NCBI GenBank assembly: GCA_043809315.1
Contig: JAZDDX010000039.1
Location: 32,001 to 96,000 of the forward strand
Reading direction: 5' to 3'
Length of the DNA: 64,000 bases
From: Pseudomonadota bacterium
GTDB lineage: Bacteria > Bdellovibrionota_G > JALEGL01 > DATDPG01
Position 1 is the stretch's first letter. Every line of letters starts with the position of its first letter. The notes beneath the pieces were generated by a model. That model ran no database searches, was not told the origin of the DNA, and saw nothing but the letters and a program-made list of their open reading frames with translations. This document shows, piece after piece, positions 951-16,324 of this stretch. The translations under genes were made by a program, and so were the position numbers.

Positions 951-3758
951 ATGCGTTTTCGCATGCGCACCTTGGCTTGGTTCTTGAGCGCCCTGGCGAT
1001 TGCCTCGGCATCGCCATTCCTGGCTCGCTCCGCCGAACCGAAGCCCCCCCCAGGCTCCGACGATTGTCTCGCCTGCCACGAAATCGGTGAGGGAACCAAA
1101 AAACGGGAAGCGGGGGTTGCCCCCGTCTTCTCCGCTTCAGCGATCCTCGACTCCCCCCATTCCGCAATCCCTTGCGTCGGCTGTCACAAAGATCTCGAAA
1201 AGGCCGACTTCCCCCACAATGAAAAACTTCTCCCCGTCGATTGCGGCAAGTGCCACCCGGATCAGGAAAAGCAGTACACTGAGAGTTTGCATGGAGTGGC
1301 AGGGAAGCGGGGGGACCGGCTGGCACCGACCTGCAAGAGCTGCCACGGGGGTCACGCGATCCGCCGGAATTCGGACTTGGGCTCTCCCACCAACACCGTG
1401 AACGTCCCGGCTCTCTGCGGTCAGTGCCATCACGAAGGCTCCCCGGTTCAGCTCACGCACAAGATCCACCAGGACAAGATCCTCGAAAATTATACGGAGA
1501 GCATTCACGGGGAGGGGTTGTTTACGAAGGGGCTTCTCGTAACTGCAGTCTGCACAAGCTGCCACACGGCCCACCATGTCCTCCCCCACACCGACCCACG
1601 CTCCTCGATCGCGCAGAAACAGATCGCCAAAACCTGCATGAAGTGCCACGGGCAGATCGAGCGGGTCCATCGGAAGGTGATTCGGGGAGCCCTTTGGGAG
1701 AAGCAGCCGCACCTGATCCCCGCCTGCGTCGACTGTCATTCGCCTCATAAGATCCGGAAGGTCTTCTACGCGCAGGGGATGTCCGATCGGGACTGCCTGA
1801 TCTGTCACTCTCGGAACGATCTTCGGTCCGACCAAGGGATCGACAGCAAACGGCTATACGTGGACGCTCCGGAGCTAGCCGGTTCCCGCCATTCGCGCGT
1901 GGCCTGCGTGCAGTGCCACAGCGGGGCTTCCCCGACTCTCATCCGACCCTGCTCTGCCATCACCGCCAAAGTGGATTGCTCCGCCTGCCATGCCGAACAA
2001 GTTGAAACCTTCAACGACAGCGTTCATGGGAAACTCGCCAAAACGGGAAGCCCGGATGCACCGATCTGCCGCGACTGCCATGGAACTCACGGCACCCTCG
2101 GACGCACGAACTCCGAAGCCCCCACTTTCTCGCGAAATGTGCCGGCTCTTTGCGGCCGGTGTCATCGCAAGGGAGAAAAGGCGGCGGTCCGGTACACCGG
2201 CAGCGAAGTCGGGATGGTCGAACATTACCGGGAGTCGATCCACGGCAAAGGGTTGTTGGAGAGCGGGCTGACCGTCACGGCGACCTGCGTGAACTGCCAT
2301 ACCGCCCACTCCGAAAAGCCGGCCAAAGACCCGACTTCGAGCGTAAACCCGGAGAACATCGCCAAAACCTGCGCCCAGTGCCATCGCGGAATCTACGAGT
2401 TGTTCGCCGCCAGCATCCATTCACCGTCGGTCTCGAAGACGGACCAGAAGCTTCCGACCTGCACCGGTTGTCACACCGCCCATACCATCGGCCGGACCGA
2501 CGTCACCGACTTCCGCCTGCACATCATGGACCAGTGCGGAAACTGCCATGACGAGATCGCCAAGAGCTACTTCGACACGTACCACGGGAAGGTCTCCAAG
2601 CTGGGATACCTCAAGACCGCCAAATGCTACGACTGTCACGGCGCTCACGACACCCTTCCCACTTGGAACCCCAAGTCCCACTTGAGCCGGGCGAACATCG
2701 TGGCGACCTGCGCCCAGTGTCATCCGGGATCGAACCGTCGTTTCGCCGGGTATCTGACCCACGCCACCCATCACGACCCCGCGCGATACCCGTTCCTCTT
2801 CTACACCTTCTGGGGGATGACGATCCTTCTCCTGGGAACGCTGGCCGTCGGTTTCCTGCATACCGCTCTCTGGATTCCGCGATCCATCCAGTTCCGGCGG
2901 GAGCTCCAAAGGATCGAAGAGAAGACGGAGGAAACCCAGTACATCTGGCGGATCCGCCCGTTCTACTCGAAACTCCACCTGCTCGTCATCGTGAGCTTCT
3001 TCGCCCTCGCCCTGACCGGGATGACGCTCAAGTTCTCCTATACCGGCTGGGCCCGTGTCCTTGCGCATCTGTTCGGTGGATTCGAGTCGGCCGGGGTGAT
3101 CCACCGGATCGGGGCGGTCATCACCTTCTTCTATTTCGGCGCCCACCTGTACGATCTCTGTAAGCGCGCCCGGAAAGAGCCGGGAGGATTCCGCGCTCTC
3201 CTTCTGGGTCCGGACAGCATGATCCCGAACCGAAACGATCTCCGAGAACTGATCGGATCGATGAAATGGTTCCTCGGGCGTGGTCCAAGACCTCAATACG
3301 GACGCTGGACCTACTGGGAGAAATTCGACTATTTCGCAGTCTTCTGGGGGGTCGCCATCATCGGCTCGAGCGGCCTTCTCCTCTGGTTCCCGGAGTTCTT
3401 CACGCTGTTCCTTCCGGGTTGGGCGATCAACATCGCCACGATCATTCACAGCGACGAGGCGCTGCTCGCAGTCGGGTTCATCTTCACGGTCCACTTCTTC
3501 AACACCCACTTCCGGCCGGAGAAGTTCCCGATCGACACCGTCATCTTCACCGGGAGGACGCCGCTCGAGGAATACAAGGTGGACCGACCCCGCGAGTACG
3601 AGGAGTTGGTGGCATCCGGGAAACTGGCCGGGAGGCTCGGAGACGCGCCCTCCCCGCACGTCCACCATTTCTGGCGGACGTTCGGGTTCACGGCACTTGC
3701 GATCGGTTTGACTCTGATCGGACTGATCGTGTACGCGACGATCTTCGCGTACCGGTAG
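951..3758 (+). CDS. CbcL-like inner-membrane cytochrome: 19 c-heme motifs fused to an FdnI/HydC-type cytochrome b domain
   Basis: Signal peptide; 19 CxxCH counted; C-terminal TM domain with His ligand candidates (KLHLL, IHRIG, IIHSDEA, VHFFNTH) and RWTYWEKFDYFAVFWG. Confidence 0.88.
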   Translation: MRFRMRTLAWFLSALAIASASPFLARSAEPKPPPGSDDCLACHEIGEGTKKREAGVAPVFSASAILDSPHSAIPCVGCHKDLEKADFPHNEKLLPVDCGKCHPDQEKQYTESLHGVAGKRGDRLAPTCKSCHGGHAIRRNSDLGSPTNTVNVPALCGQCHHEGSPVQLTHKIHQDKILENYTESIHGEGLFTKGLLVTAVCTSCHTAHHVLPHTDPRSSIAQKQIAKTCMKCHGQIERVHRKVIRGALWEKQPHLIPACVDCHSPHKIRKVFYAQGMSDRDCLICHSRNDLRSDQGIDSKRLYVDAPELAGSRHSRVACVQCHSGASPTLIRPCSAITAKVDCSACHAEQVETFNDSVHGKLAKTGSPDAPICRDCHGTHGTLGRTNSEAPTFSRNVPALCGRCHRKGEKAAVRYTGSEVGMVEHYRESIHGKGLLESGLTVTATCVNCHTAHSEKPAKDPTSSVNPENIAKTCAQCHRGIYELFAASIHSPSVSKTDQKLPTCTGCHTAHTIGRTDVTDFRLHIMDQCGNCHDEIAKSYFDTYHGKVSKLGYLKTAKCYDCHGAHDTLPTWNPKSHLSRANIVATCAQCHPGSNRRFAGYLTHATHHDPARYPFLFYTFWGMTILLLGTLAVGFLHTALWIPRSIQFRRELQRIEEKTEETQYIWRIRPFYSKLHLLVIVSFFALALTGMTLKFSYTGWARVLAHLFGGFESAGVIHRIGAVITFFYFGAHLYDLCKRARKEPGGFRALLLGPDSMIPNRNDLRELIGSMKWFLGRGPRPQYGRWTYWEKFDYFAVFWGVAIIGSSGLLLWFPEFFTLFLPGWAINIATIIHSDEALLAVGFIFTVHFFNTHFRPEKFPIDTVIFTGRTPLEEYKVDRPREYEELVASGKLAGRLGDAPSPHVHHFWRTFGFTALAIGLTLIGLIVYATIFAYR

Positions 3759-3764
3759 GTCGAA

Positions 3765-4091
3765 CTACTTCTGCTGCGACTTCACGTACTTCGTGATCTC
3801 GTCGGCTTCCGCGGGGGACACTTTCATCGCTTTCATCTTCCGGCTGCCTACTTCGATCGACTTCTTGATGGCTGCGTCGTCCAGCCCCTTCACCGCGGCA
3901 CCCGTCAGGTCCATCGTTTCCGGCTTCTCCGGCTTCATCATCTTCGTGATCTTCTCGTTCCCTTTCAGGTTGTCGCCGTGGCACTTCTTGCAGTGCTGGT
4001 CGTACAGCGCCTTCCCGTCCGCAAACGCGCTCGGAACCGAACCGAATGCCGCCAATGCCAAAATCGCCACCATGCTTCCCATGACTTTCAT
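3765..4091 (-). CDS. Monoheme class I cytochrome c, Lys-rich
   Basis: Signal peptide; ADGKALYDQHCKKCHG; candidate distal Met in RKMKAM. Confidence 0.9.
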   Translation of the reverse strand: MKVMGSMVAILALAAFGSVPSAFADGKALYDQHCKKCHGDNLKGNEKITKMMKPEKPETMDLTGAAVKGLDDAAIKKSIEVGSRKMKAMKVSPAEADEITKYVKSQQK

Positions 4092-4284
4092 TTCCTGAGT
4101 TCTCCTTTTTCGTTGGAATCCAACTGAGTTTTGAAACGGCCGGGCAATGTAGCGTGGTTTTCCTCAGAGGCAACAAAGAAACGAAGTTTCAACCTCCCCT
4201 TCGAAATTCTTCCCTTTTCTCTCCGCTCCTCTTACAAAGATCTGGAAACCAACCCTTTTTTGACCTACAGCCGAAAGACTCGCC

Positions 4285-5709
4285 ATGTTGAAATCGCTTG
4301 AAATTTTCTATCGGATCGTCACGAACAACGTGGCCGGGCTGATCGGCTCGATCTTCGCAACCTCCAGCACCCTCCTCTTCATCGGCTACTTCCTGGCGAT
4401 GCTGTCCGGGTTCGAAGGTGGGCCGTACTTCGGGATTCTCGTCTTCCTGATCAACCCCCTCTTCTTCGTCGGCGGCCTTCTGATGATCCCGTTCGGCCTC
4501 TGGCGGGAGAAGCAGAAACGGCTCCGCTCGGGGCAGGCGACCATCTCGTGGCGGGAACTGATCCAACTCCCCTCGTCTCCGGGCCGCCGGAAGCGCCTCT
4601 TCGTGATCTTCTCCGGCGTGACGGCTCTCAACGTGAGCATCTTGGTGGTCGCGGCCTACCAGGGGGTCCATGTGATGGAAACGACGGAGTTCTGCGGCAC
4701 CGCCTGCCACGCAGTGATGCAACCGGAGTACACCGCCTACCTCCGCTCGGCGCACGCTCGCGTCGGCTGCATCGGGTGCCACATCGGCTCCGGAGCCAGC
4801 TGGTTCGTCAAATCGAAGCTCTCCGGTTCCTGGCAGCTCGTGGCGGTTACTTTCAACCTATATCCGCGCCCGATCGAATCCCCGATCAAGAACCTCCGTC
4901 CCGCTCGTGAAACATGTGAGCAGTGCCACTGGCCGACCAAGTTCGTCGGCGACCGGCTCAAGATCAAGAGTCGTTTCAAGGAGGACGAGGGGAACACCGA
5001 GACGAAAACAGCCCTCCTGATGCGCGTCGGCGGGACGCAAGGGAGCCGGGCCCACGGGATCCACTGGCATGTGAACCCCGACAACAAGGTGGAATACCTC
5101 TCCGATGCCAAGCGGGAAACGATCTACAAGGTCAAGCTGACGGGGAAGAGCGGCCTCGTGACGGAATTCGAGGGCCCGGACGCGACCCCCCAGGCAAAGA
5201 ACGCCGAGTGGCGTGTGATGGACTGCATCGACTGCCACAACCGGCCGACGCACATCTTCCGGACGCCACAGGACGAGATCGATCTCGGGCTGGAAGAAGG
5301 GAGAATCGATCGCACCCTCCCGTTCGTCCGGCGGGAGGGGTTGGCGCTGCTCAAAGGCTCCTTTATGACGACGGGGGAAGCCTTACAGGCTGAGATGACG
5401 GGGAAGCTTCTGGCGTTCTACCGGGCGAATTATCCGCAGATCGCCGCCGACCGGAAGCCGTTGATCGACGATACCGCCGCCGTGCTCGCGGACCTTTATT
5501 CGAAGAACGTCTTCCCCCACATGCACGTGACCTGGGGGACCTACCCGAATCATTTGGGGCACGAGAACTCCCCGGGCTGCCAACGATGCCACGACGGGAG
5601 TCACAAGTCGAAAGACGGAAGGACGATCCCGGACGATTGCGACACCTGCCACAAACTGCTCGCCAACGAAGAGGTCAATCCGGAGATTTTGAAGCAGCTT
5701 CAGCCCTGA
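4285..5709 (+). CDS. ImcH-like NapC/NirT-family multiheme quinol dehydrogenase
   Basis: Three N-terminal TM segments (GGPYFGILVFL...LLMIPFGLW), FCGTACH, SAHARVGCIGCHIG, WFVKSKLSG, RPARETCEQCHWP, MDCIDCHNRPTH, GCQRCH, CDTCH (5 CxxCH + 1 CxxxCH). Confidence 0.85.
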   Translation: MLKSLEIFYRIVTNNVAGLIGSIFATSSTLLFIGYFLAMLSGFEGGPYFGILVFLINPLFFVGGLLMIPFGLWREKQKRLRSGQATISWRELIQLPSSPGRRKRLFVIFSGVTALNVSILVVAAYQGVHVMETTEFCGTACHAVMQPEYTAYLRSAHARVGCIGCHIGSGASWFVKSKLSGSWQLVAVTFNLYPRPIESPIKNLRPARETCEQCHWPTKFVGDRLKIKSRFKEDEGNTETKTALLMRVGGTQGSRAHGIHWHVNPDNKVEYLSDAKRETIYKVKLTGKSGLVTEFEGPDATPQAKNAEWRVMDCIDCHNRPTHIFRTPQDEIDLGLEEGRIDRTLPFVRREGLALLKGSFMTTGEALQAEMTGKLLAFYRANYPQIAADRKPLIDDTAAVLADLYSKNVFPHMHVTWGTYPNHLGHENSPGCQRCHDGSHKSKDGRTIPDDCDTCHKLLANEEVNPEILKQLQP

Positions 5710-7633
5710 TCTCTTGAAGCTCCCGCGGGTGCTGGTGTTCCATCTCTTCCTCGGTCACTTTGCCGGTCAAAAAGATCAGGCTGACCGGGTATTCGTCCGG
5801 GTGAAAGATGACGAAGAAGAAGTGCCAGACGGCGATCGAGAGCCCCGCCAGCCAGGCCTCGTAATAGTGGATCACGTCGGCCAACGGAATCCCCCAAGAG
5901 GGGAACCCAAATAACTGGCTGATCTCTACCGGGAACCAGAGGGCGAATCCTGTCGCTCCCATGATGATCGTCCCCCAGATGACCGCCCAGTATTCCGCTT
6001 TGTGGACGTACGAATACCGCCCCAGGTGTGGGCGTCGTGCGCCCCGGCGGCCGGTCAGCTGCATCCAGTAGTATTTGAGCGAATCCCGGACCTCGAGAAG
6101 GTCGCGGAACCGGGGGAGCAGCTCCTTGATTTCGTGGCGCCCTTTCGGCGTCCAAATCGAATGAACGACGTGCAGAACCCCGGCCAGGAGCATGACGATC
6201 GCCGCCCCCCGGTGGATCAAGCGACGCGCCTCCTCCCCGACGTGAACCCAGTTCAAGAGGATCGTCCAGGGGGCGTCGAAGAATCGCAGGGCAAAGCCGG
6301 TCACGACTAACGTGATGAAGCTGGTCAGAAGCATCCCGTGCGTCACCAGCTGGAAGTTCGTGAAGCGCCGGTACCCTTTCTCCTTCCTTTGTTTCCGGAA
6401 CTTCTGCACGACGGCGGAGAAAAAGATCAAGGCGTTGTGCGCCAGCATCCCGCCGATCGTCCCGAAGATCAGCCAAAGATAAAGCTGACGAACGTAGAAT
6501 AATATCGGGGCCGAGGCTGGTGAGGTCTGGAGATGGACGGGGGTCCGTGCGAACGTCTCCCTAGCCCCCGGGTGACAGTTCCCGCAGGTCTTGGCCAAGT
6601 TCGAAACATGGATCGACGAATTCGGGTCGGAGGACGGGAGAATCTTGTGTCCCCCGTGACAGCTGGCGCAACCCGCCACGGTGACCGATCCCCGGCGTAC
6701 GGCGAGGCCGTGGTAACTGTCCTCGTAACTTGCGGTTCTGCCGGTCGAGAGACCATATCGTTTGGTGAGCATCAGATCGTCGTGACATTTTCCGCAGGTT
6801 TTGGCTGCGAGATGTGCCGGCGAGACCGGCGAGTTGGCGTCGTGCGTCCGTAAGATGCCGTGCTCGCCGTGGCAGTCGGCGCAGGAGGGGGCGTCCTCGA
6901 TCCCCTTCGCCAACGCCTGACCGTGGATCGAAGCGGTGTAATCCTCCACCATCTTCGCATGGCAGCGGCCGCAAGCGGCCGGGATCGCCTTCTTGGCGGT
7001 CTTGGAGGTCATCTCCCGCCCCGGCTGAACGGTGTGGGCGCCGTGGCAGTCGCTGCAGACGGCGGCCTTGAGGTTCCCCGCGGCGACCGCTTTTCCATGA
7101 ACCGAATCTTTGTACGCCGCGAACGGGTCGGCGACCGGGATGTCGTATTTCCGGATGAGGCTCACTTGGGCGTGGCAGCGGGCGCACATGCCGGGAATAT
7201 TGGCCCTGGCCTGTTTCGAGGCGGGGTTGTCGGACGGGAGGATCTCGTGGAGGTTCCCGTGGCAGTCGGCGCAAGCCGGGGCATCGGTGATTCCCTTCGC
7301 GCGCGCCAGCCCGTGAAAGCTTGCGTTGTACTGTTTGACCGCATCCTCGTGGCAGGAGGAACAGTCGACCTTCGGCGGCGCCTCTTCATGCGCTTGGAAC
7401 GGTCCTTTCGCGTGGCAATCGACGCAGTCGAGCCCCCCGTGCACGGAGGCCTCGAAGGCCTTCACGTTCAGGCCGTCATGACACTCCAGACAGGTTTGGG
7501 GCCGGATCTTCTTCGCCCCGGCCGCGACCGCCGAGGAAACCCAGACGGCCGCAACCAGGAACGAAAGAAAACAGAGACTACTTCGCTTGCTTCTGCAAGT
7601 CGCGCGAGTAAGCGGTGATCGCTTTCGCTTCAT
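5675..7633 (-). CDS. Second CbcL-like cytochrome: 11 c-heme motifs plus cytochrome b domain
   Basis: 11 CxxCH counted; TM domain with THGML, IHRGA, RYSYVHKAEYWAVIWG, IHYYEAWLA, WHFFF. Start uncertain because it overlaps the upstream gene by 56 nt. Confidence 0.88.
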   Translation of the reverse strand: MKRKRSPLTRATCRSKRSSLCFLSFLVAAVWVSSAVAAGAKKIRPQTCLECHDGLNVKAFEASVHGGLDCVDCHAKGPFQAHEEAPPKVDCSSCHEDAVKQYNASFHGLARAKGITDAPACADCHGNLHEILPSDNPASKQARANIPGMCARCHAQVSLIRKYDIPVADPFAAYKDSVHGKAVAAGNLKAAVCSDCHGAHTVQPGREMTSKTAKKAIPAACGRCHAKMVEDYTASIHGQALAKGIEDAPSCADCHGEHGILRTHDANSPVSPAHLAAKTCGKCHDDLMLTKRYGLSTGRTASYEDSYHGLAVRRGSVTVAGCASCHGGHKILPSSDPNSSIHVSNLAKTCGNCHPGARETFARTPVHLQTSPASAPILFYVRQLYLWLIFGTIGGMLAHNALIFFSAVVQKFRKQRKEKGYRRFTNFQLVTHGMLLTSFITLVVTGFALRFFDAPWTILLNWVHVGEEARRLIHRGAAIVMLLAGVLHVVHSIWTPKGRHEIKELLPRFRDLLEVRDSLKYYWMQLTGRRGARRPHLGRYSYVHKAEYWAVIWGTIIMGATGFALWFPVEISQLFGFPSWGIPLADVIHYYEAWLAGLSIAVWHFFFVIFHPDEYPVSLIFLTGKVTEEEMEHQHPRELQEIRAEAASKSPD

Positions 7634-7946
7634 CCGCGGTCACTTTATCCTTCATCGGTTTCATCTTGCCAGTTCCTTCGAGAATCGCCTTCTCGAACTC
7701 GGCATCCGACAGTTTCTTCGCGTCGGCGGAGACGATGGAGAGCTTCGCCATCTGCTTCTCGTCGAGCTTCATCGTCTTGGCGATCGGCAGCCATTTCCCG
7801 TCCTTCATGCCGCTGCCGTCCGGGGCGTGACAGGTCTTGCATTTCCCTTCATAGACCGCCTTACCATCGGCCGCAGCCTGCGAAAGATTCCACGCGGCAA
7901 CCGCAATCGCCGCCACCGTAACTCCCAACAACGTCTTCTTGAACAT
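7578..7946 (-). CDS. Monoheme class I cytochrome c, paralog of 3765-4091
   Basis: Signal peptide; ADGKAVYEGKCKTCH; GTGKMKPM; GAGGAG RBS. Confidence 0.9.
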   Translation of the reverse strand: MFKKTLLGVTVAAIAVAAWNLSQAAADGKAVYEGKCKTCHAPDGSGMKDGKWLPIAKTMKLDEKQMAKLSIVSADAKKLSDAEFEKAILEGTGKMKPMKDKVTADEAKAITAYSRDLQKQAK

Positions 7947-7973
7947 ACTCTCTCCTCGTTTAGTTAATAGTTA

Positions 7974-10900
7974 CTACCTCAATGTCGCATTCGGGAAGTC
8001 GGTAGCAAATGAATTCCCCCCGAGCGCCGTGTACGTCCCCTGCAGAAGTTGGACATAGAACGCGGTGTTGTGAATCCCGAAGCTCGCCTCGCGCACCAGC
8101 AGGTTGTGGTTCCAGACGGCTCTTCGGAGACGGTTCCCCAAGGTCGTGTCCTTGCCGGCACTCGCCACTTTGTCGAGCTTCATACAGTCCGCATTTACTG
8201 CACAGACTGTCGCCGGATCGTTGTCACACTTCAAGGCCGTGGTCGTGCCGCACAACCCGTCTCCGCCAGCCCGGTTGAAGCCGTAGCCGCTACCCTGGGC
8301 CGGATAGATGCTCTTTGTCGCGGAGCCCCAGCTGAAGCGGATCGCGGTGGGTCCGCAGTCGGTATCGGCTGTGCAGGACTTCTCCGAGGTTCCGATCTTG
8401 TTCGTGCATTTCCCTGTGCCGGTGTTGCACGTCCCCCAGTCGAAAGAACCGTACGTGGTCGAAGTTTGGCCCAGGCGTTTGAACGTACAGTCGGCATCGG
8501 CCTGACACAAATCGGCATTGTCGAGCGAGCATCGCTGCACTACTTTCGTGCCCGACGGGTCGCCAGTGCCGTCACAATCGCTCGCGGCGCTGCACTTCCA
8601 CCCACTTGTGTAGTCGGTCCCTCCGATCGTCCAGATACAGTACTTCTGCGTTCCACCCGATGACGGGATCGCGCAGGCTCCGGTGGAGCCTACCCCGAAA
8701 ACGGCAGGGTCAAAAACCGTTGCGCTACACGTTCCACCCGTCGCGGAGCCGTCCAGCGTCCGGATCTTGGCCGCCACAGCGACCAACAGCCCCTTCATCT
8801 CGTCCTCGACCCCTTCGATCGTGCCGTCGCCGTCATAGTCGGCTCGCGCCGGGCGGTTGAAGTCGGTCAGGCCGATGTGGCACAACTGACAAGGCTTGAG
8901 GTTTTGGAGGTCGGTCGTTTCATACGACGGTTCGGTCTCCTCCCCTTCCAGGTGACCGATCCCGTGGCTCCGCCGCTGCTTGAAGGCGTGGCCGCCGACA
9001 TGCAAGTACCCCTCTTCGGTCGCGCTCGGGCCCGGGTACATGTGGCAGGTGACACACTTGTTGTTCTCGTTCGGGAGCGACGTGTCCCCGGTTACCGCCG
9101 CGAGATTGAACCCCGGCTGGGAGTGGAACGAGTTCTCCGTCAATGTGAAATCGGCCGTGCCGTCCTTGTCCAGGTCGGTCATCGCCGCCTTCCCTTCGAG
9201 AACCGCCGCCTGGCCGTTGTAGTGAACCTGGCGCAGGTAGAAGTCGGCGCTCTGTTCCGGCGTCATGCACATCCCATTCGTGAGGCCGTCAGGCACACTG
9301 TCGTCGGTGCCGTCGACCACGCCGTCGCGGTTGAAGTCACAGTCCGCCTCATCCCAGTTGTAGAGAGCGTCGTGGCATTTATAACAGACGGCCGCCTTCC
9401 CGGCGTTCACCGTCTGCCCCGTCGCGACCATTGTTACGTTCCCGAACGCTCGCAACTGGTTCGGATTCGTCGCGTCGTGCGGATCGTGACAGCCAGCGCA
9501 ACCCACGTTCACGAACGAGCCGTAGGTTTTGTCGACCGCGGTCAACTCCTCCCCGGCCGCATATTGCGCAAACCCCTCGGAGGTGTGACAACGAACGCAT
9601 CCCACTTCCGTAGGCCACTCGGCCTGGTCGGCCGTTTCGTTGTGCTTCGAGTTGACCCACTGGGCCTCTTCGAGATGGCACTGGCCGCAAACGCCGGTCT
9701 GGGCAAACGAGAAGGAGATCGCGGTCGGGTTGCCGTTGTGGAGACTCCCGGGGCCGTGACAGTTCTCACACTGAATGTTGGCAAGCGCGGCCACCTTCGG
9801 GTTTGCTGTCACAAAATCGGCGAAGGTCGCCGGCGCATCTGTGATCGAGAACCCTTCGGAGGTGACGAGATCGTCGAATCCGCCGTTCGCCGCGTCGGTG
9901 CAGTAACCGACCGTCTCGAATGCCCAAAGGTACGGTTCCGGGGCCAACGCCGACATCGAGGTATATGAATTCTCGAAAACGGAGGCGTGTTTCGTCTCTT
10001 TCCACTCCGTCACCATATCGGGCTCAACGACACCGTTGTGGCAGGTTCCGCATTCCGGAGCCCTCGGGCTGGTGCTCGCGATCGTACCGACGCCGACGAA
10101 CTCTGCGGCGTTGATTCGGATCTTGCCGGTTATCGCACCGCTCGTTGAACTGTACGCCACGGTGTAGAGACCCGCGACGTCCGGCGTGAATTTCGGGAAC
10201 TGAAGCGCCGAAGCGGAGGTTCCCGTATCGGCAAATGTGGCGGACGAACCGGACGGGCGCGTCAGAGTCCAGCTCCAGTCAGTGATTGCCGCGTAAGCCG
10301 GGGTCTGATTCGGGCCCCCCATATAAACGACCGTCCCAATCCCGACGTTGTTGAGACCGCTCGTCGGCCAGATGATCTTATCGTTGTCCTGGAGATAAAC
10401 CGGGAAAGTCGTTTCGTCCGAATTTCCATCGGCATCCGTGACCACCAGCTTGAAAAGAACCTGCAGATTGCTCGCCGAGATCGGAAGCGGCTGCCACTTG
10501 TACTGGTTGGCCGACGTTCTTGTCGTATTCGTATCGTCATCTTTCCCCACCTGCTCGATCCCGACGAGCCCGGGGGCTGTGAACGACAGGGTCGACTCGG
10601 TCAACGCTCCCGCCGGAATCGCGCTCGGCCCGGCCACCTGCGACCATTTGTAGGAAGCGATGGTTCCTGAAGCCCGGCTGGTCGCTCCGGACAAGATCCC
10701 GCCGGTTTGGTCGAGGTTCATTATATTCTCAGTCGCCCCGAACCGGGTTCGCGTCGTGACGGCCGATCCGTCCCCGTTCGTGATCGTCGCCAGGATCGTT
10801 TTCGCCGTGACGGTGAGCGTGTCGGTTGCTTTGCCGCTGTTGATGCTCAAGTGAAGGACGTAATCCCCCGCCTTGTCGGCCGTGAAGGTCGGTGCAAGCG

Positions 10901-11135
10901 ACGTACCGCCCGCCAGCGTCGCCGCCGATCCCGACGGACTCGACGTCAGCGTCCACTGCGCCGTCGTGACGTTGGTCGAGGAGGCGCCGTTCAGCGTGAC
11001 CTTGTCCCCCACCAGAACCTTCTGGTCCGCCCCGGCATTCGCCGTCGGCGTTCCGGCCGGCCCACTACTGGAACAACCAGCCACTGATAGCGCCAGTCCG
11101 ATGAGAACGGTCACAAACAGGTTCTTACGCTTCAT
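7974..11135 (-). CDS. Lipoprotein multiheme cytochrome c (8 CxxCH; OmcB/c552-like C-terminus) with N-terminal PKD/Ig-like domains
   Basis: GGAGGAG RBS before MKRKNLF; lipobox SVAGC; PTANAGADQ PKD motif; CGTCH, CENCH, CGQCH, CVRCH, CAGCH, CYKCH, CVTCH, CQLCH; terminal AVWNHNLL...GIHNTAFYVQLL. Confidence 0.85.
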   Translation of the reverse strand: MKRKNLFVTVLIGLALSVAGCSSSGPAGTPTANAGADQKVLVGDKVTLNGASSTNVTTAQWTLTSSPSGSAATLAGGTSLAPTFTADKAGDYVLHLSINSGKATDTLTVTAKTILATITNGDGSAVTTRTRFGATENIMNLDQTGGILSGATSRASGTIASYKWSQVAGPSAIPAGALTESTLSFTAPGLVGIEQVGKDDDTNTTRTSANQYKWQPLPISASNLQVLFKLVVTDADGNSDETTFPVYLQDNDKIIWPTSGLNNVGIGTVVYMGGPNQTPAYAAITDWSWTLTRPSGSSATFADTGTSASALQFPKFTPDVAGLYTVAYSSTSGAITGKIRINAAEFVGVGTIASTSPRAPECGTCHNGVVEPDMVTEWKETKHASVFENSYTSMSALAPEPYLWAFETVGYCTDAANGGFDDLVTSEGFSITDAPATFADFVTANPKVAALANIQCENCHGPGSLHNGNPTAISFSFAQTGVCGQCHLEEAQWVNSKHNETADQAEWPTEVGCVRCHTSEGFAQYAAGEELTAVDKTYGSFVNVGCAGCHDPHDATNPNQLRAFGNVTMVATGQTVNAGKAAVCYKCHDALYNWDEADCDFNRDGVVDGTDDSVPDGLTNGMCMTPEQSADFYLRQVHYNGQAAVLEGKAAMTDLDKDGTADFTLTENSFHSQPGFNLAAVTGDTSLPNENNKCVTCHMYPGPSATEEGYLHVGGHAFKQRRSHGIGHLEGEETEPSYETTDLQNLKPCQLCHIGLTDFNRPARADYDGDGTIEGVEDEMKGLLVAVAAKIRTLDGSATGGTCSATVFDPAVFGVGSTGACAIPSSGGTQKYCIWTIGGTDYTSGWKCSAASDCDGTGDPSGTKVVQRCSLDNADLCQADADCTFKRLGQTSTTYGSFDWGTCNTGTGKCTNKIGTSEKSCTADTDCGPTAIRFSWGSATKSIYPAQGSGYGFNRAGGDGLCGTTTALKCDNDPATVCAVNADCMKLDKVASAGKDTTLGNRLRRAVWNHNLLVREASFGIHNTAFYVQLLQGTYTALGGNSFATDFPNATLR

Positions 11136-11163
11136 GGATTTCTCCTCCCTAACTTTTTGTTGG

Positions 11164-11838
11164 CTAAGACCGAGCATGACAAACCTCACAAGCGGTTCCG
11201 TTATCCGTGTGCCGCAGCGGCGTGTGGCAGGTCCGACAGTCGACCCCCACCCCATGCTTGGCGTTCGCGGGAAGTCTCGGCGTCAAGGCGTGCGACGTCG
11301 AACCGCGGTGACAGGTGGCACAACCCTGCCCCCCCACCGACTCGAGCGGGTAGTGACAGCTCACGCAGTGCCGGTTGAGCGGCGACCCCCACCCCGCCGT
11401 GTGCGTCATCGGACGGGTGCTCGAATGGCATCGCTCGCAGAAATCGGTGTGATGGCAGGTCTCGCACCGGGTTCGGTTGAATCCGACCTGGAGACCGTGT
11501 CCTTTGATCCGGAAGAACTGATTGTGATCCTGCGGCGTCGTCTGTTGATGGCAATCGTTGCAGAAGTAGGCCGAGGAGTGGCAGATCACACAGTAGTTCG
11601 TGTTCACCAGGCCGAAGCGGCGGATCAGCCGGCCGTGCTCCCGCATCCAGAGCACGTCGTGCCCCGGCGGCTTCGTCTTCGTCGACATCCCCTCCGTATG
11701 GCACTCGGTGCAATCCGTTTTCGTAGCGACCGCGGGGTGGTCGAACTTCGTCCCTTCGCACCCCTTGTTCCCCATCGCAAACGGGAGAAGCGCCGCCACC
11801 AGGACCGTGGGAACGACCGAGCGTCTCAAAACTTCCAT
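11164..11838 (-). CDS. Small 9-heme cytochrome c (periplasmic or lipoprotein conduit subunit)
   Basis: 9 CxxCH in 224 aa; N-terminal signal, possible lipobox Cys at NKGC. Confidence 0.88.
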   Translation of the reverse strand: MEVLRRSVVPTVLVAALLPFAMGNKGCEGTKFDHPAVATKTDCTECHTEGMSTKTKPPGHDVLWMREHGRLIRRFGLVNTNYCVICHSSAYFCNDCHQQTTPQDHNQFFRIKGHGLQVGFNRTRCETCHHTDFCERCHSSTRPMTHTAGWGSPLNRHCVSCHYPLESVGGQGCATCHRGSTSHALTPRLPANAKHGVGVDCRTCHTPLRHTDNGTACEVCHARS

Positions 11839-13178
11839 ACGACCCTCGTGTCGACGGTGTGAAAATTCGCGAGCGAATCCTGCTCGAACTCGTATCCGAC
11901 CCGCCCATCGAGACTCTCCAGAATCTTCATCGAAACCCGGGCGAAATAGGTCCGGACATCCTCTGACTCGTTTCCCGTGAAGAGGTTATAGCGATAGAGG
12001 TAGAACGCCGTTCCCCCCGACAGCCGCATCCGCCGTTGCCAGACCTCCTGGTCCGCCGCGAACGATGCGCTGAACAGGTTGTTCTTGAACGTGCTGTCGG
12101 TCCCGTGAAAGTAATCGCCGGTAGCCGAAAGACTCATCCCTTCCAGCGGAAACCCGGCCGTCGAGACCGTTACGAAACCGCGCTGGTATCCGTGGTTGAA
12201 TGCGCTCCCGATCTGCGTGTCCCGCAGGAAGCGTCCCATATACCCGAGGTCGACGAAGAAGTGTTCTCCGAACCCTTTCGTGACCGTCGTCATCACCTCA
12301 AAAAACGGCTCGTACGAGCCGATGAATCCGTAAGCGTCGAAATCGATCGCCCGGATCCCTTGCGGCTTGAGGAGTGTGTAGAAGCGGTTCTCGATCGTCA
12401 GCTTCTGATCCGGAACAAGCATCCGGACCTCCGTACGGAGATCCCGAACCTGGTCCGAAAATGCCGTGAATCTCGTGCTGACCATTACGTTCGGGTCGAG
12501 ATCGAACCAGAGGCTGGTGCCGAAGAGCGTGTCTTCCTGATCGCCGAAGTTCGCGCGAAACCCGGATCCCTTATCCCGCAGATGAACCATGTCGAAACGG
12601 AACCGCGCCCAAGGTGCCGGATCGAACTGCAGCGCTCCGCCCGCCATCCAATCCCCGGTCTGATGACCGAGGCGGTTTTCAAACAGGTGGACCGGGATCC
12701 CGCCGAACGCGGTCACTGAAAGCCCCGCCGCGCTTCCCGTCTGGAGGGTCGCCCCGTCGTAATGAAGCGATTCGAATTCGTACCGGTACTGTCGGCCGGC
12801 CCGGAACTTCTCGAACGGGCCCGCTTCCTTCACGTCGACGTACGCGTGGTAGATCCGTTCGACCGCCGCCGAGTTGAACCCGCCGTAGACGTCGGCGAAC
12901 GGCCCGGTGTTCTTCCGGCCGTCCACGTTGAAGACCCCCCCCACCTGAACCGATCCGGTCACCCGATCCGAAAAAGCGTCCCCGAACTCGGCCGAACCGA
13001 CCGTTTCAATATCCTGGTCGCTGACCCCCTCCGCCGTCCGGAAGCGGTACCGCGTCGACAGGGATCCGTGGGTCGTATAGGCGAAAACCGGGGTAGCGGC
13101 GCATGCCAGAGCGAGGAAAAACCCAAATAGTTTCGGAAGAAATCCCACGAAGAAGAGAAAAGGATAAGAACGGCCCAT
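11826..13178 (-). CDS. Outer-membrane beta-barrel porin of a porin-cytochrome complex
   Basis: Signal peptide, alternating aromatic/hydrophobic strands throughout, C-terminal VVWKF barrel signature; overlaps the 9-heme gene. The true start may be GTG 13148. Confidence 0.8.
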   Translation of the reverse strand: MGRSYPFLFFVGFLPKLFGFFLALACAATPVFAYTTHGSLSTRYRFRTAEGVSDQDIETVGSAEFGDAFSDRVTGSVQVGGVFNVDGRKNTGPFADVYGGFNSAAVERIYHAYVDVKEAGPFEKFRAGRQYRYEFESLHYDGATLQTGSAAGLSVTAFGGIPVHLFENRLGHQTGDWMAGGALQFDPAPWARFRFDMVHLRDKGSGFRANFGDQEDTLFGTSLWFDLDPNVMVSTRFTAFSDQVRDLRTEVRMLVPDQKLTIENRFYTLLKPQGIRAIDFDAYGFIGSYEPFFEVMTTVTKGFGEHFFVDLGYMGRFLRDTQIGSAFNHGYQRGFVTVSTAGFPLEGMSLSATGDYFHGTDSTFKNNLFSASFAADQEVWQRRMRLSGGTAFYLYRYNLFTGNESEDVRTYFARVSMKILESLDGRVGYEFEQDSLANFHTVDTRVVWKF

Positions 13179-13186
13179 CTATGTCA

Positions 13187-13202
13187 TATGATTTAGATCA
13201 CC
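13187..13202. promoter_or_regulatory. Crp/Fnr-family-like box upstream of the porin operon
   Basis: Minus strand GGTGATCTAAATCATA matches the CRP consensus TGTGATCTAGATCACA at 13/16; -10-like TATCCT at 13166-13161. Confidence 0.5.
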
Positions 13203-15285
13203 TTCCTGAGACCAGGTCGATTTCTTTCGCACCGTATCCGGACCACTTCAGTTGCTGCCGCAAGAAGCTCTCGGAATCGACGAGCCGGACATCGACCGGG
13301 CGTCCCCCCTGCTCGATCAACTGCAGCTCAGGATAGACGTAGGCGCAGTAGCTCGGAAGCCCGAGCTTCTTTTTCCGATCCCGGATCTCGGTCGCCAGTT
13401 TCGAATCGTACGTTGCCGCCCCGTACCCCTGCGCCAGTTTCCGGATCGCCGGGAGATCCCCTTCGGACTTGATCCGTTGAAGTTCGCGGAGCAGTTCATC
13501 CACGGCCTGTCGCATCCTCGGAATGTTCTCGTCCCGCACGACCCAGAATGTTTTCATATGTCCGCCCACTTCGCGCCGGACCTCCTCGACGACCCCCCAT
13601 TTCTTCCGGAAAAAGTTGACCGCGAAGAGACCGCCGACTTGATGCGGCTCCTCCAGATTCGTCGAACCGAGGGGGATCTCCGCCAGGCCAATCAGCTCGG
13701 ACACGGGATACTGTTTATACATTGCTCTCGCGGCCTCGTCCGACCAATCCTTCCGGATCCGGAACGTCTCGGGGTCCCAGGCATGGTGAAGCGCCAGGAG
13801 ATCGGCCCGTTCCTCCTCCAGCCAGCTGTAGTAGCCGGGGAGGTAGTGGCTCGGATCCTCCGTCAATTTCGGATTCGCCTGTCCCGAGGCGTGCCCCAGC
13901 GTTTCATGGAACCCCACCAGGATCTCGATCGCCGCCTGCCGGTGTTTCAGCAGAATCTCCTGATCCTCGGGGATCACGAACTCGCGCACCGCCTTCTCCC
14001 CGATGATCTCGTCCCGTGCTCTCTTGGTGTTCCACAGGAGAACGTTCTTGCTCCCGTATTGCACGCGGAGAGCTTGATCGTTCGGAAGGTTGACCCCGCT
14101 GAAGCTGATCGGTCCGGCCTCCCCCGCCTCGACCAACACCTCGACCATGTTCGCAATCGGCTTCACCCCGCTTCGTTTGTATGCGTCCGAAATCGGGGCG
14201 TGCGATTCGTAGTAATCGGCCTTGGAAGCGACCTCCCGGAGCCAGCCGGAGCTCTCCTCGTCCACGAAGTAGGTCATCCCTTCCCAAGCCCCCTTCTTTT
14301 CCCGGGGATCGAGGTACTCCTCGATGAATCCGTTGATGATGTCGACCGTCGGCTTGGAATAGGCGAGCCAGGCGATGTTGTATTTCGTGAACAGCTTCGG
14401 ATCCCCCGTCCGGTAGTACTCCGCAAGAAGCCTGAGCGACTTCGCGTTCTCGGGGGTGGCGTACTCCACCGCTTCGTCGAGATGCCCGGCCACCTTCGCA
14501 AGATACGGAGCGTAGATTCCGGGCGGGATCTTTTTCGACGGGTCACCGGCCCGCGCAACTTGCTCGACGATCTTTTTCCCCTCCCGGGCGAGTCGCGAGT
14601 TCAACGGATGAAGATCCGTGAACCTTTGAAGGTCGGATAAGTGGATCCCACGGTCATAATAGTTGTTGGCGCTCGCGGTGAGAAGATCCTCCCCCGGTTT
14701 CGGCGACCGGGAGGTCACGAAAGGTTCGAACGCAGGATCGAAGATCGTCCGGCGCAACGAATCGGCATATTCCCGAACCTCCCGCTTCCCCTGCGACTGG
14801 AAGACGGCTCCGTTCCGCTTCGCGCGTTCCATCGCATCTTCGAACTTCCCATAGGTGATCCTTTTCGGCGGCAGAAGCTTGGCGTAGGTGAACTTCCCGT
14901 AGATCCCGGTATTGAGATACTGCAGCTTGAGATACGTCGCGATTTCCCCGAGCAGTTTCTTGTCGATCCCATCGGAGTGGAGAAGGATCTCCTCGCAGAC
15001 CTGCCGGATCTCGAGATTGCGCCGGTGAAGCTGATCGAAGTGGATATCCCGCCCCGCAACGGCCGCCTGGTACAAATGATAGGCGAGCAGTTTGTCGTTG
15101 AGCGACAGACGGTCGAACCCCTTAACCGGGAGCCTCAAGATCGCGTACTCCTCCACCGTTTCGAGGGGCGCGGCAGATCCCCCTTTGGCGGGATGGGGCC
15201 GAGGCCGGGAGCAGGAAGCCAGAACGAACGCCATCAAAACGATCCCTGCGAGGGAACAGCCGACCGGTGTGGCATGAATCCTCAT
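13198..15285 (-). CDS. Peptidase M49 (dipeptidyl peptidase III family), lipoprotein
   Basis: HETLGH and LEEERAD zinc motifs; GVNLPND; INGFIEEYLDP; lipobox LASC. Confidence 0.88.
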   Translation of the reverse strand: MRIHATPVGCSLAGIVLMAFVLASCSRPRPHPAKGGSAAPLETVEEYAILRLPVKGFDRLSLNDKLLAYHLYQAAVAGRDIHFDQLHRRNLEIRQVCEEILLHSDGIDKKLLGEIATYLKLQYLNTGIYGKFTYAKLLPPKRITYGKFEDAMERAKRNGAVFQSQGKREVREYADSLRRTIFDPAFEPFVTSRSPKPGEDLLTASANNYYDRGIHLSDLQRFTDLHPLNSRLAREGKKIVEQVARAGDPSKKIPPGIYAPYLAKVAGHLDEAVEYATPENAKSLRLLAEYYRTGDPKLFTKYNIAWLAYSKPTVDIINGFIEEYLDPREKKGAWEGMTYFVDEESSGWLREVASKADYYESHAPISDAYKRSGVKPIANMVEVLVEAGEAGPISFSGVNLPNDQALRVQYGSKNVLLWNTKRARDEIIGEKAVREFVIPEDQEILLKHRQAAIEILVGFHETLGHASGQANPKLTEDPSHYLPGYYSWLEEERADLLALHHAWDPETFRIRKDWSDEAARAMYKQYPVSELIGLAEIPLGSTNLEEPHQVGGLFAVNFFRKKWGVVEEVRREVGGHMKTFWVVRDENIPRMRQAVDELLRELQRIKSEGDLPAIRKLAQGYGAATYDSKLATEIRDRKKKLGLPSYCAYVYPELQLIEQGGRPVDVRLVDSESFLRQQLKWSGYGAKEIDLVSGR

Positions 15286-15297
15286 GGTCCCGTCTTC

Positions 15298-16233
15298 CTA
15301 TTCCTTCACCGCCACGCCGAACCGCACGAGCTTCGCCGAGGAGCCGGCCTCGACCGGGAGAAGGAACGTGGCCGCTCCAAGATCCATGGAAAACGCGGTG
15401 ACCGGACCCTTCCAGTCGGCCGGAACGGCCGGTATCGCGACCTCCCCTCCCTTGACTGTGACGGCGAAAACGCGCCCGGTCGCCCGGTCTGCGGTCATCA
15501 GATGAGAGCGGTACGGTTCGATCCCGGTCAGGTCGGTCCCCGGAAACGCTTTCAGTAATTCCGTCTGACGGCTTTTGAGGTTCACGATCGCGATCGCGCT
15601 CCCCCCCTCGGTATTCCCGGCTTGTGTCGCCACGAGGTAAAGACGGCGCCCGTCGGACGAAGCGCGCAGATACCGCGGTTCCCCCAATCCGGTTTTCTCG
15701 AGCGCTTCGGCGCCGAGGATCACCTCGACGGTTTTTTTCTTCGGGTCGAGCGACCAGATCTGTTTCGCCGACGGGGAACAGAAATAAGCACGGGCGTTCA
15801 GAATCGAATAGTCGATCGACGTGATCTCCCCGGCCCCGGAGATCGGGATCTCGATCGGAGGGGTGTCCGACTTCTTCGATTTTACGAGACCGAGAAACCC
15901 TCCGACTTTCGCGATCTTCAGGAGATCCTTCTCCGCCCAGAAAAGGCGTCCATGCCGTGCATCGTATGCGATGGCGGTCGGACTACTCGACGCGGGAGAG
16001 AGATCCTCCAGCTTCCCCCCGTGAACACTTGCCAGCATCCAACTTCCACCCTCCACCGGCCGTGCCACCAGATAGGTTCCCGGTGCATCGATCGCCAACC
16101 CCGCTGCGGGAGAAAGGCCGTCTCGAAGAACCTCCACGGCCGGTTCGGTCCGACGAGCCGGCTCCCCCCGCTTTCCCGCGCAACTCGCGGCGAGTCCAAT
16201 CAATAGATAGACGAGTGTCTTGTTTTGTCCCAT
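15298..16233 (-). CDS. Hypothetical lipoprotein, probable beta-propeller (NHL/SMP-30-like)
   Basis: Lipobox LAASC; repeated blade-like segments (PAAGLAID, PTAIAYD, PRYLRASSDG). Confidence 0.6.
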   Translation of the reverse strand: MGQNKTLVYLLIGLAASCAGKRGEPARRTEPAVEVLRDGLSPAAGLAIDAPGTYLVARPVEGGSWMLASVHGGKLEDLSPASSSPTAIAYDARHGRLFWAEKDLLKIAKVGGFLGLVKSKKSDTPPIEIPISGAGEITSIDYSILNARAYFCSPSAKQIWSLDPKKKTVEVILGAEALEKTGLGEPRYLRASSDGRRLYLVATQAGNTEGGSAIAIVNLKSRQTELLKAFPGTDLTGIEPYRSHLMTADRATGRVFAVTVKGGEVAIPAVPADWKGPVTAFSMDLGAATFLLPVEAGSSAKLVRFGVAVKE

Positions 16234-16324
16234 GGCGGCGGCAGCTTACCCTTTTTGAACATCCTTGACGAACGGCGAGGTTTCGGAGATTTTCCCTCCG
16301 ATCAATCACTCGGACGGAGGCTTC

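Follow-up and report, generated by a model that had tools for sequence, protein, structure and literature searches.

The window analysed here is a stretch of 64,000 nucleotides (nt), positions 32001-96000 of contig C39, from the genome of an uncultured bacterium of the Bdellovibrionota_G lineage (GenBank assembly GCA_043809315.1; 2.42 Mb in 44 contigs, 96% complete). We refer to this source genome as G000, to related genomes as G003, G004 and G005, and to related loci or contigs by L numbers. Positions 951-13178 carry genes for seven c-type cytochromes and one beta-barrel protein. Five of these genes form an operon on the minus strand, which begins with the barrel gene (11826-13178; 450 amino acids (aa), no haem motif) and runs through peri9 (11164-11838; 224 aa, nine CXXCH motifs), OMC8 (open reading frame (ORF) 7974-11255, likely 7974-11135; 1053 aa from the likely start, eight CXXCH) and mono122 (7578-7946; 122 aa, one CXXCH) to c11b (5675-7633; 652 aa, 11 CXXCH), its last gene. 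On the plus strand lies a pair, c19b (951-3758; 935 aa, 19 CXXCH) and the gene for an ImcH-type cytochrome (4285-5709; 474 aa, five CXXCH plus one CX3CH at residue 137), between which the mono108 gene is inserted on the minus strand (3765-4091; 108 aa, with a single motif, CKKCH, read from the translation). A preliminary description of this DNA had counted 19+1+6+11+1+8+9 = 55 haem-binding motifs in seven cytochromes, and this census was confirmed, with the refinement that it comprises 54 CXXCH and one CX3CH, the latter belonging to the 6 of the ImcH-type protein. The same description viewed the genes as contiguously packed. They do adjoin one another, but they are divided between the two strands and among four or more transcription units, and hence do not make up a single operon. 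The plus- and minus-strand modules converge, their 3' ends overlapping by 35 nt, and are therefore not co-transcribed. Across the whole genome, 12 ORFs of at least 60 aa contain at least three CXXCH motifs each (125 motifs); five of these ORFs, with 52 motifs, lie at this locus, a concentration far beyond chance. One ORF elsewhere in the genome has 27 haem motifs.

The barrel protein possesses a signal peptide and a C-terminal W-x-F motif, and is encoded in single copy in the genome. Its AlphaFold2 model, based on a 45-sequence alignment, has 22 strands (predicted local distance difference test (pLDDT) 86.5; predicted template-modelling score 0.79), bearing out the earlier identification of a beta-barrel gene. 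No Pfam or NCBIfam family matched it at E<=0.01. A Foldseek search with the model returned generic barrels only (AlgE, MOMP, FimD and Occ porins; template-modelling scores 0.26-0.50), and no MtrB structure appeared among the best 50 matches listed. The protein atlas returned unnamed clusters only; the best structural neighbours with a name were PEP-CTERM-associated and 'alginate export' barrels, which we treat as leads only. A word search recovered 54 family members, all of them 'hypothetical', while a hidden Markov model recovered 1050 representatives at E<=1e-3 (510 at E<=1e-30), each standing for a cluster at 50% identity. Functional names were lacking for all ten distant relatives looked up, two of which bore the label 'hypothetical protein'. 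Within the source phylum, the collection compared held 17 species, relatives being labelled at NCBI as Deltaproteobacteria or Bdellovibrionota metagenome-assembled genomes (MAGs); the barrel was found in three of the 17, G000 included. Since the family is absent from domain libraries, annotation based on Pfam or NCBIfam would miss it.

The gene following the barrel encodes peri9, which has a signal peptide and nine CXXCH motifs spaced at ~22 aa per haem. All nine motifs, together with 10 further His residues, were conserved in 11 homologues. No NCBIfam model matched peri9 (TIGR03508 included), and a PDB sequence search returned nothing solved. MtrA-type wires have ~33 aa per haem (PMC5566968), so that peri9 packs its haems more densely. 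We propose that peri9 is the insert of the barrel. A prediction of the complex between barrel residues 32-450 and peri9 residues 28-224 gave a median score of 0.21, compared to a mark of 0.32, with the peri9 fold itself uncertain.

OMC8 most likely starts at the sequence MKRKN near position 11135, just before a lipobox (VAG/C), although the reading frame is open back to 11255. Its layout comprises three immunoglobulin (Ig)/PKD-like domains, a domain with the eight CXXCH motifs, a lineage-specific 206-aa insert and a conserved C-terminal helical segment with an invariant His. Pfam matches included PF22352 (K319L-like PKD) and a weak hit to Cytochrome_C554. The AlphaFold model (mean pLDDT 60.6) was confident in the Ig-like domains and the C-terminus and poor in the haem domain and the Cys-rich insert; Foldseek accordingly returned Ig-domain surface proteins only, and was uninformative regarding the haem fold. 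Of 28 homologues compared, 25 contained exactly eight CXXCH motifs and three contained nine, and exactly eight His residues outside the motifs were invariant, one of them being that in the C-terminal segment. By this count, which is one of motifs and His residues and not a structure, every OMC8 haem can be bis-His ligated. The pairing of eight motifs with eight additional invariant His favours haems that transfer electrons over a catalytic one, and the sequence contains no CXXCK, CX3CH or CX4CH. The haem domain has 1214 relatives at E<=1e-3, and the Pfam lists of some include PF22113 and PF18962, which we take to be the MtrC/MtrF II/IV domain and a type-9-secretion sorting tail, respectively. 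The lipobox, the Ig/PKD-like domains and the presumed secretion tail of these relatives fit the prediction that OMC8 is an extracellular surface lipoprotein cytochrome. In a PDB sequence search OMC8 matched a PKD protein and, weakly, entry 6i5b (E=0.0015 over 45 residues), which is named only 'Uncharacterized protein' and which we assume to be the Thermincola surface cytochrome OcwA.

The 206-aa insert of OMC8 (8150-8770; approximately residues 795-1000 counted from MKRKN) is rich in Gly, Thr, Asp and Ser, contains 16 Cys, and was modelled with pLDDT <35. Its counterpart in the G003 orthologue has 247 aa and 24 Cys, and those in two other homologues ~170 aa and 8 Cys, while in the remaining 24 of the 28 homologues the same site holds 34-85 aa with 0-4 Cys. 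This insert may represent a disulfide-rich surface module.

Barrel, peri9 and outer cytochrome form a triad that is kept in relatives. Junctions were counted in the window, in L005-L013, L015, L051 and L054, and twice in L053; L052 was dropped as identical to L006, and the short metagenome contigs L055-L057 were left out of the survey. A peri9 homologue directly followed the barrel gene at all 15 junctions with sequence. At 12 of the 14 junctions measured (the exceptions being L006 and L010) the two genes overlapped by 13 nt, such that the peri9 ATG lies inside the codons of the barrel W-x-F motif, pointing to translational coupling. An OMC8 homologue came next in nine loci, in one of which (L008) it was interrupted and split. 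Elsewhere the outer cytochrome was exchanged: in L006, L012 and L051 a non-orthologous lipoprotein with 7 or 10 haems follows in place of OMC8, and L011 and the first unit of L053 carry other multihaem lipoproteins ahead of the barrel. Geobacter conduits likewise replace the outer lipoprotein and keep the periplasmic partner (PMC6148476), the same swap as is seen here with barrel and peri9 retained. The complete 12-kb clustering is a juxtaposition that occurs only in the source genome among its family.

Two of the loci surveyed have further peculiarities. In L008, from a relative with a complete genome, a 284-aa ORF on the opposite strand (12194-13048, minus) lies between the peri9 and OMC8 homologues, and the OMC8 homologue (13118-16785, plus) is split into ORFs of 748 aa and 474 aa, which may reflect disruption by an insertion sequence; in the same locus a single open frame of 855 aa covers both an NrfD-like gene and the barrel. 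The metagenome contig L053 (1-19776) is richer than the source locus, carrying two tandem barrel/peri9 units, a set of NrfD, tetrahaem, FeS and NrfD genes, lipoproteins with 12 and 10 haems, and genes for an ImcH-type and a monohaem cytochrome.

We compared the triad to known conduits. Porin-cytochrome c (Pcc) clusters are defined by architecture, with 18-22 barrel strands, 5-14 periplasmic haems, and identities between members that descend to 8-13% (PMC4245776). The 22 modelled strands of the barrel and the nine haems of peri9 lie inside these ranges, and OMC8 corresponds to the outer-membrane lipoprotein multihaem cytochrome present in most Pcc clusters; by strands, haems and gene order, the three predicted products fit the Pcc kind. 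Among the closest parallels is OmbB-OmaB-OmcB of Geobacter sulfurreducens, in which barrel, small periplasmic multihaem cytochrome and lipoprotein multihaem cytochrome follow in the same order and the outer cytochrome is again the variable part. The two differ in that OmaB has 8 haems compared to 9 in peri9, OmcB has 12 compared to 8 in OMC8, which bears Ig/PKD-like domains in addition, and the source locus lacks an OrfR-type regulator.

Two other affiliations were considered for the triad and rejected. As to the Mtr/Mto/Pio family, the barrel did not match the MtrB_PioB Pfam model and has 22 strands compared to the 28 predicted for MtrB/MtoB (PMC4245776), and peri9, with nine motifs in 224 aa, did not match the DmsE/MtrA decahaem model. 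PCC3 and PCC4 also group a porin and multihaem cytochromes with an inner-membrane redox protein, and each such cluster has been proposed to reach across the envelope, the inner-membrane component being a five-helix protein of ~300 aa with WX3HX13H motifs and the PCC3 cytochromes having median haem numbers of 34 and 21 (PMC5566968). No gene for a five-helix protein with WX3HX13H is present in 951-13178, and the 9 and 8 haems of peri9 and OMC8 stand against those medians.

The last gene of the conduit operon, c11b, and the first gene of the plus-strand pair, c19b, encode related proteins with a multihaem cytochrome c domain joined to a cytochrome b domain. In c19b a signal peptide is followed by a periplasmic domain with 19 CXXCH motifs (~30 aa per haem) and a C-terminal cytochrome b domain of the FdnI/HydC type; c11b has the same plan with 11 CXXCH. 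Pfam assigned Cytochrom_c3_2, c7 and Paired_CXXCH to c19b, and PF01292 matched c11b above the cut-off (45.1 bits) and c19b below it (23.2 bits). A PDB sequence search with c11b gave one weak match to a 'Cytochrome c' (E=0.0046). The two are paralogues, being 31% identical throughout their haem and membrane domains, and two separate parts of c19b align to one and the same haem region of c11b; c19b has therefore expanded by internal duplication. By crude hydropathy c11b has ~5 hydrophobic helices and c19b ~6. Six His residues of the membrane domain (399, 432, 474, 488, 589 and 604 in c11b) were invariant across five homologues; those at 474 and 488 have the HX13H spacing of the two b-haem ligands in FdnI. 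The c11b ORF as drawn overlaps mono122 by 56 nt, so its true start may lie further downstream. An orthologue of c11b (61% identity) holds the same operon position in G003, another lies near the triad in L011 (38% identity), and a fusion of this type was present in three of five further triad-bearing genomes. In contrast to this wider distribution, an orthologue of c19b was found only in G005 (75-76% identity).

These fusions resemble CbcL of G. sulfurreducens, an N-terminal multihaem cytochrome c with 9 haems joined to an FdnI/HydC-like dihaem cytochrome b domain with membrane His ligands. Both have more haems than CbcL, and the locus differs further in carrying two paralogues, one of them in the 19-haem form that arose by duplication. 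The family that comprises CbcL, MtrH and MtoC spans 3-23 motifs, 416-1034 aa and 4-6 transmembrane helices (PMC6295460), and c19b (19 motifs, 935 aa) and c11b (11 motifs, 652 aa) both lie inside these ranges. On domain architecture, motif counts and size, c19b and c11b fit the CbcL/MtrH/MtoC type and are candidate quinol oxidases.

The 474-aa protein has three helices near its N-terminus (approximately residues 16-40, 50-68 and 105-123), with the CX3CH at 137 coming right after helix 3, and its N-terminal region matches PF03264 (NapC/NirT; E=6.3e-10). NrfH was its sole solved relative in a PDB sequence search, and a weak one (E=0.005). The family is very large, with at least 7968 relatives at E<=1e-3 among the best 8000 candidates scored; proteins 52-58% identical occur in Acidobacteria and others, and the nearest named relatives are 'NapC/NirT family cytochrome c' proteins of Acidobacteria-type MAGs (52-55% identity). 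The published signature of ImcH consists of three N-terminal transmembrane helices, a CX3CH adjoining the transmembrane domain and 5-9 CXXCH (PMC6295460). The protein encoded here has all of these elements, with five CXXCH, and shares with ImcH of G. sulfurreducens the NapC/NirT-like region. We assign it to the ImcH type on this helix and motif signature. Its six haems and 474 aa place it at the low end, Geobacter ImcH having seven haems in a group of 495-519 aa (PMC6295460).

The two small cytochromes are paralogues as well (37% identity). Mono108 is a secreted class-I monohaem protein with a signal peptide and one CKKCH site; mono122 is a secreted class-I monohaem protein (PF13442 and PF00034) whose nearest solved relative is Kuenenia cytochrome c-552 (E=1.3e-5). 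An orthologue of mono122 occupies the same position in G003 (46% identity), and monohaem genes adjoin the triad in L005, L006, L008 and L053. Mono122 is a candidate periplasmic shuttle. Neither monohaem protein matched MtoD at E<=1; a solved MtoD structure is, we assume, present in the PDB.

In the relatives, a module predicted to interact with quinone at the inner membrane lies within a few kb of the triad at every locus with adequate flanks except L009, and the module is not the same one throughout. The c11b-type fusion holds the same operon position in G000 and G003 and lies near the triad in L011; G003 and L011 additionally have a Rieske protein, a cytochrome b and a 9-haem cytochrome. L005 instead carries a split cytochrome b6/petD-dihaem c. 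A tetrahaem cytochrome, a Tat-exported 4Fe-4S protein (NrfC) and NrfD accompany the triad in L006, L008 and L053, and NrfD alone was found in L051, at the contig edge. In the second triad of L053 an ImcH-type cytochrome (39% identical) and a monohaem c are encoded directly upstream. A NrfD-type cluster downstream of a PCC has been described in a Planctomycetota MAG (PMC10732223). The preliminary description had suggested that relatives be checked for a neighbouring catalytic subunit that would tie the system to a soluble substrate, and neither a molybdopterin subunit nor any other catalytic subunit was present beside any triad in the related loci examined.

Taken together, these findings indicate that the locus is real and coherent, and that it very likely encodes an envelope-spanning electron conduit. 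Genes for every tier are present, as the preliminary description had held: three putative inner-membrane cytochromes of the quinone pool, two small periplasmic cytochromes, a barrel with a periplasmic multihaem partner, and a predicted surface lipoprotein. Its further claim of non-standard subunits did not survive comparison, as the fusions, the ImcH-type protein, the barrel and peri9 all fit the published ranges of CbcL/MtrH/MtoC, ImcH and Pcc proteins. Nor is the architecture undescribed. CbcL and ImcH of G. sulfurreducens are encoded apart from the conduit, whereas here c11b stands in the conduit operon itself; other published clusters follow the same logic as the minus-strand operon in joining a porin-cytochrome conduit, a class-I monohaem cytochrome and a CbcL/MtrH/MtoC-type fusion. 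Among them are mtoA-mtoB-mtoD-mtoC of Gallionella ES-2 and Dechloromonas RCB and the mtr cluster of Rhodoferax ferrireducens with mtrH/cymA (PMC6295460), in addition to the pcc clusters of Desulfurobacterium and Thermovibrio with the inner-membrane c/b-like proteins Dester_0351 and Theam_0871 (PMC4245776). Compared to the mto clusters, the source locus has an additional outer lipoprotein cytochrome. No mtrAB or mtoAB was reported next to imcH in PMC6295460; an ImcH-type gene next to a Pcc-type conduit, as seen at this locus and in L053, is thus a small addition to the published picture.

We consider it somewhat more likely than not that the locus encodes a trans-envelope conduit of the Pcc kind equipped with its own quinol oxidases and conducting electrons outward. 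Quinol generated by complex I, hydrogenases and other dehydrogenases would be oxidised on the periplasmic side of the inner membrane by three candidate enzymes, namely c11b and c19b (CbcL type) and the ImcH-type cytochrome. Electrons would then pass along periplasmic haem chains to the outer membrane, with or without the two class-I monohaem cytochromes as intermediates, and would be carried across it by peri9 threaded in the 22-stranded barrel. At the cell surface OMC8, with all haems presumably bis-His and positioned behind three Ig-like domains, would deliver them to an insoluble or extracellular acceptor, candidates being Fe(III)/Mn(IV) oxides, humics, an electrode or a partner cell. Outward flow is unproven but most likely, given the presence of an ImcH-type protein; moreover, neither a bc1/b6f-type cytochrome b (PF00033) nor RuBisCO nor an evident cytochrome-c oxidase (cbb3/aa3 type) was detected in the 96%-complete genome, while complex I and two NiFe hydrogenases, together with cytochrome c maturation genes, are present. 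The sole protein of the haem-copper family (721 aa; C11:29843-32008) has no NCBIfam name, and the gene after it belongs to the 'nitrous oxide-stimulated promoter family'; we read the 721-aa protein as a probable quinol nitric oxide reductase and not a cytochrome-c oxidase. The usual route of microaerophilic Fe(II) oxidisers, from cytochrome c to cbb3/aa3 with reverse flow via bc1, is therefore not evident in this organism. The source genome may have replaced the Rieske/cytochrome b/9-haem set that stands beside the conduit in G003 and L011 by the ImcH-type/19-haem module.

A more far-reaching version of this reading, which we offer tentatively and would put at somewhat below even chances, holds that the triad founds a separate, unnamed conduit family, unrelated in sequence to Mtr and to Geobacter Pcc/Ext and widespread in uncultured bacteria of groundwater and sediment. 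It would act as a universal socket for at least four interchangeable quinol dehydrogenases (CbcL-type, ImcH-type, NrfCD-tetrahaem and Rieske/cytochrome b). In this organism, with its small genome and neither a bc1 complex nor a cytochrome-c oxidase, most respiratory electrons would leave through it, and c19b would provide a membrane-anchored 19-haem chain of sufficient length to bridge the periplasm without soluble shuttles.

Several observations weigh against an outward conduit served by all three quinol oxidases. No recognisable inner-membrane module stands beside the triad in L009, and relatives show no tie between the conduit and the ImcH-type/19-haem module. A solitary ImcH-type gene lies ~70 kb away from the conduit genes in G003. 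The ImcH-type gene of G005 is directly followed by the c19b orthologue on an 11.4-kb contig with unrelated flanks and the opposite gene order to the source; G004 has an ImcH-type gene and no match to the barrel, and an ImcH-type protein was found in none of five further triad-bearing genomes at E<=1e-10. The '12-kb complete system' therefore consists of two modules that merely abut in the source genome. A competing account takes them to be functionally separate as well. The minus-strand operon would then be a self-contained conduit, while c19b, the ImcH-type cytochrome and mono108 would serve as general quinol:cytochrome-c oxidoreductases that replace bc1 and feed other periplasmic or outer-membrane cytochromes, their adjacency being an accident of rearrangement. 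The lack of a bc1 cytochrome b would suit such a role, as would the three further multihaem loci of the genome, on C24, C26 and C37, and the convergent, separately transcribed arrangement of the modules. On the other side, L053, an independent metagenome contig, has its ImcH-type and monohaem genes directly upstream of the triad and on the same strand, and in Desulfuromonas acetexigens homologues of ImcH and CbcL have adjacent accession numbers and are both expressed on electrodes (PMC12133095). On balance we regard two unconnected systems as unlikely.

The direction of flow is the second point at issue. Fe(II) oxidisers with mtoABDC likewise possess class-I monohaem cytochromes and members of the CbcL/MtrH/MtoC family (PMC6295460), so that these do not fix the direction. 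Were the conduit to run inward, electrons from Fe(II), a cathode or a partner cell would enter through OMC8, peri9 and the monohaem cytochromes, the c/b fusions would reduce quinones, and cytochrome bd, which is present and could accept the quinol, or the NorB-like enzyme would re-oxidise it. The layout of the operon does parallel mtoB-mtoA-mtoD-mtoC of the Fe(II) oxidisers Gallionella ES-2 and Dechloromonas RCB (PMC6295460), and monohaem class-I cytochromes are conserved accessories of the triad; haem-copper-oxidase-like genes, recognised by ORF size and transmembrane counts only, lie just downstream of the triad in L005. However, no cbb3/aa3-type oxidase, bc1 or RuBisCO was detected in the 96%-complete genome, the monohaem proteins did not match MtoD at E<=1, and the family of the adjacent ImcH-type quinol oxidase has so far been implicated only in quinol oxidation and outward flow (PMC6295460). 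Inward conduction is in our judgement improbable, to about the same degree as two independent systems. We give very little credence to OMC8 being a catalytic octahaem enzyme of the tetrathionate-, nitrite-, hydroxylamine- or sulfite-reductase kind that serves a soluble substrate at the surface: its eight haems, as in octahaem reductase families, and its weak matches to Cytochrome_C554 and 6i5b speak for such a role, but motif and His counts disclosed none of the open or unusual axial haem positions of OTR-, HAO-, MccA- or NrfA-like enzymes, the outer cytochrome is exchanged for non-orthologous lipoproteins with 7, 10, 12 or 13 haems while barrel and peri9 stay, and substrate-specific accessory genes are absent.

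With regard to the surroundings of the locus, its GC content matches that of the remainder of the window, and the neighbouring genes are of the housekeeping type (type III glutamine synthetase, EF-G, 2-oxoacid:ferredoxin oxidoreductase, ADP-forming acyl-CoA synthetase and glycogen enzymes); neither gives any sign of an imported island. Genes for an SRPBCC protein and an M49 peptidase flank the system and are not kept beside it in relatives. The latter encodes an M49-family peptidase with a lipoprotein-like signal (13198-15285, minus) and ends 19 nt before the barrel gene. Upstream of it lies a gene for a 311-aa lipoprotein-like protein of no family (15298-16233, minus), which is not conserved beside the conduit in relatives either; both could possibly be co-transcribed with the barrel operon in the source genome. 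Further along, positions 16265-17695 (plus) encode a 476-aa outer-membrane protein with central Asp/Gly/Cys-rich repeats resembling thrombospondin type 3 and a C-terminal region that appears OmpA-like by eye. A scan for promoters and terminators returned sites no more numerous than in shuffles. When sequencing runs were searched with positions 5675-13178, no RNA run containing the region was found, and one subsurface-metagenome DNA run contained a fraction of 0.30 of its words. Among the related loci, L005 has five ORFs at 9820-13535 (minus; 553 aa with 11 transmembrane helices, 233 aa, 194 aa and others) that resemble a haem-copper oxidase operon in ORF size and transmembrane counts; they are convergent with the OMC8 homologue and lie 263 nt downstream of it.

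Within the literature library searched, no description of the triad or of conduits in this lineage was found. Envelope-spanning clusters of the same logic are already in print, so that the architecture itself is not new, and the finding reveals no new principle. What is new here is an unnamed barrel family, its nonahaem insert, an Ig-domain octahaem lipoprotein and the swappable inner-membrane partners. The exchange of partners around one conserved triad is a natural experiment in the wiring of conduits to the quinone pool. If the proposed function is correct, a member of a tiny uncultured subsurface lineage would respire solid-phase minerals, or take electrons from them.

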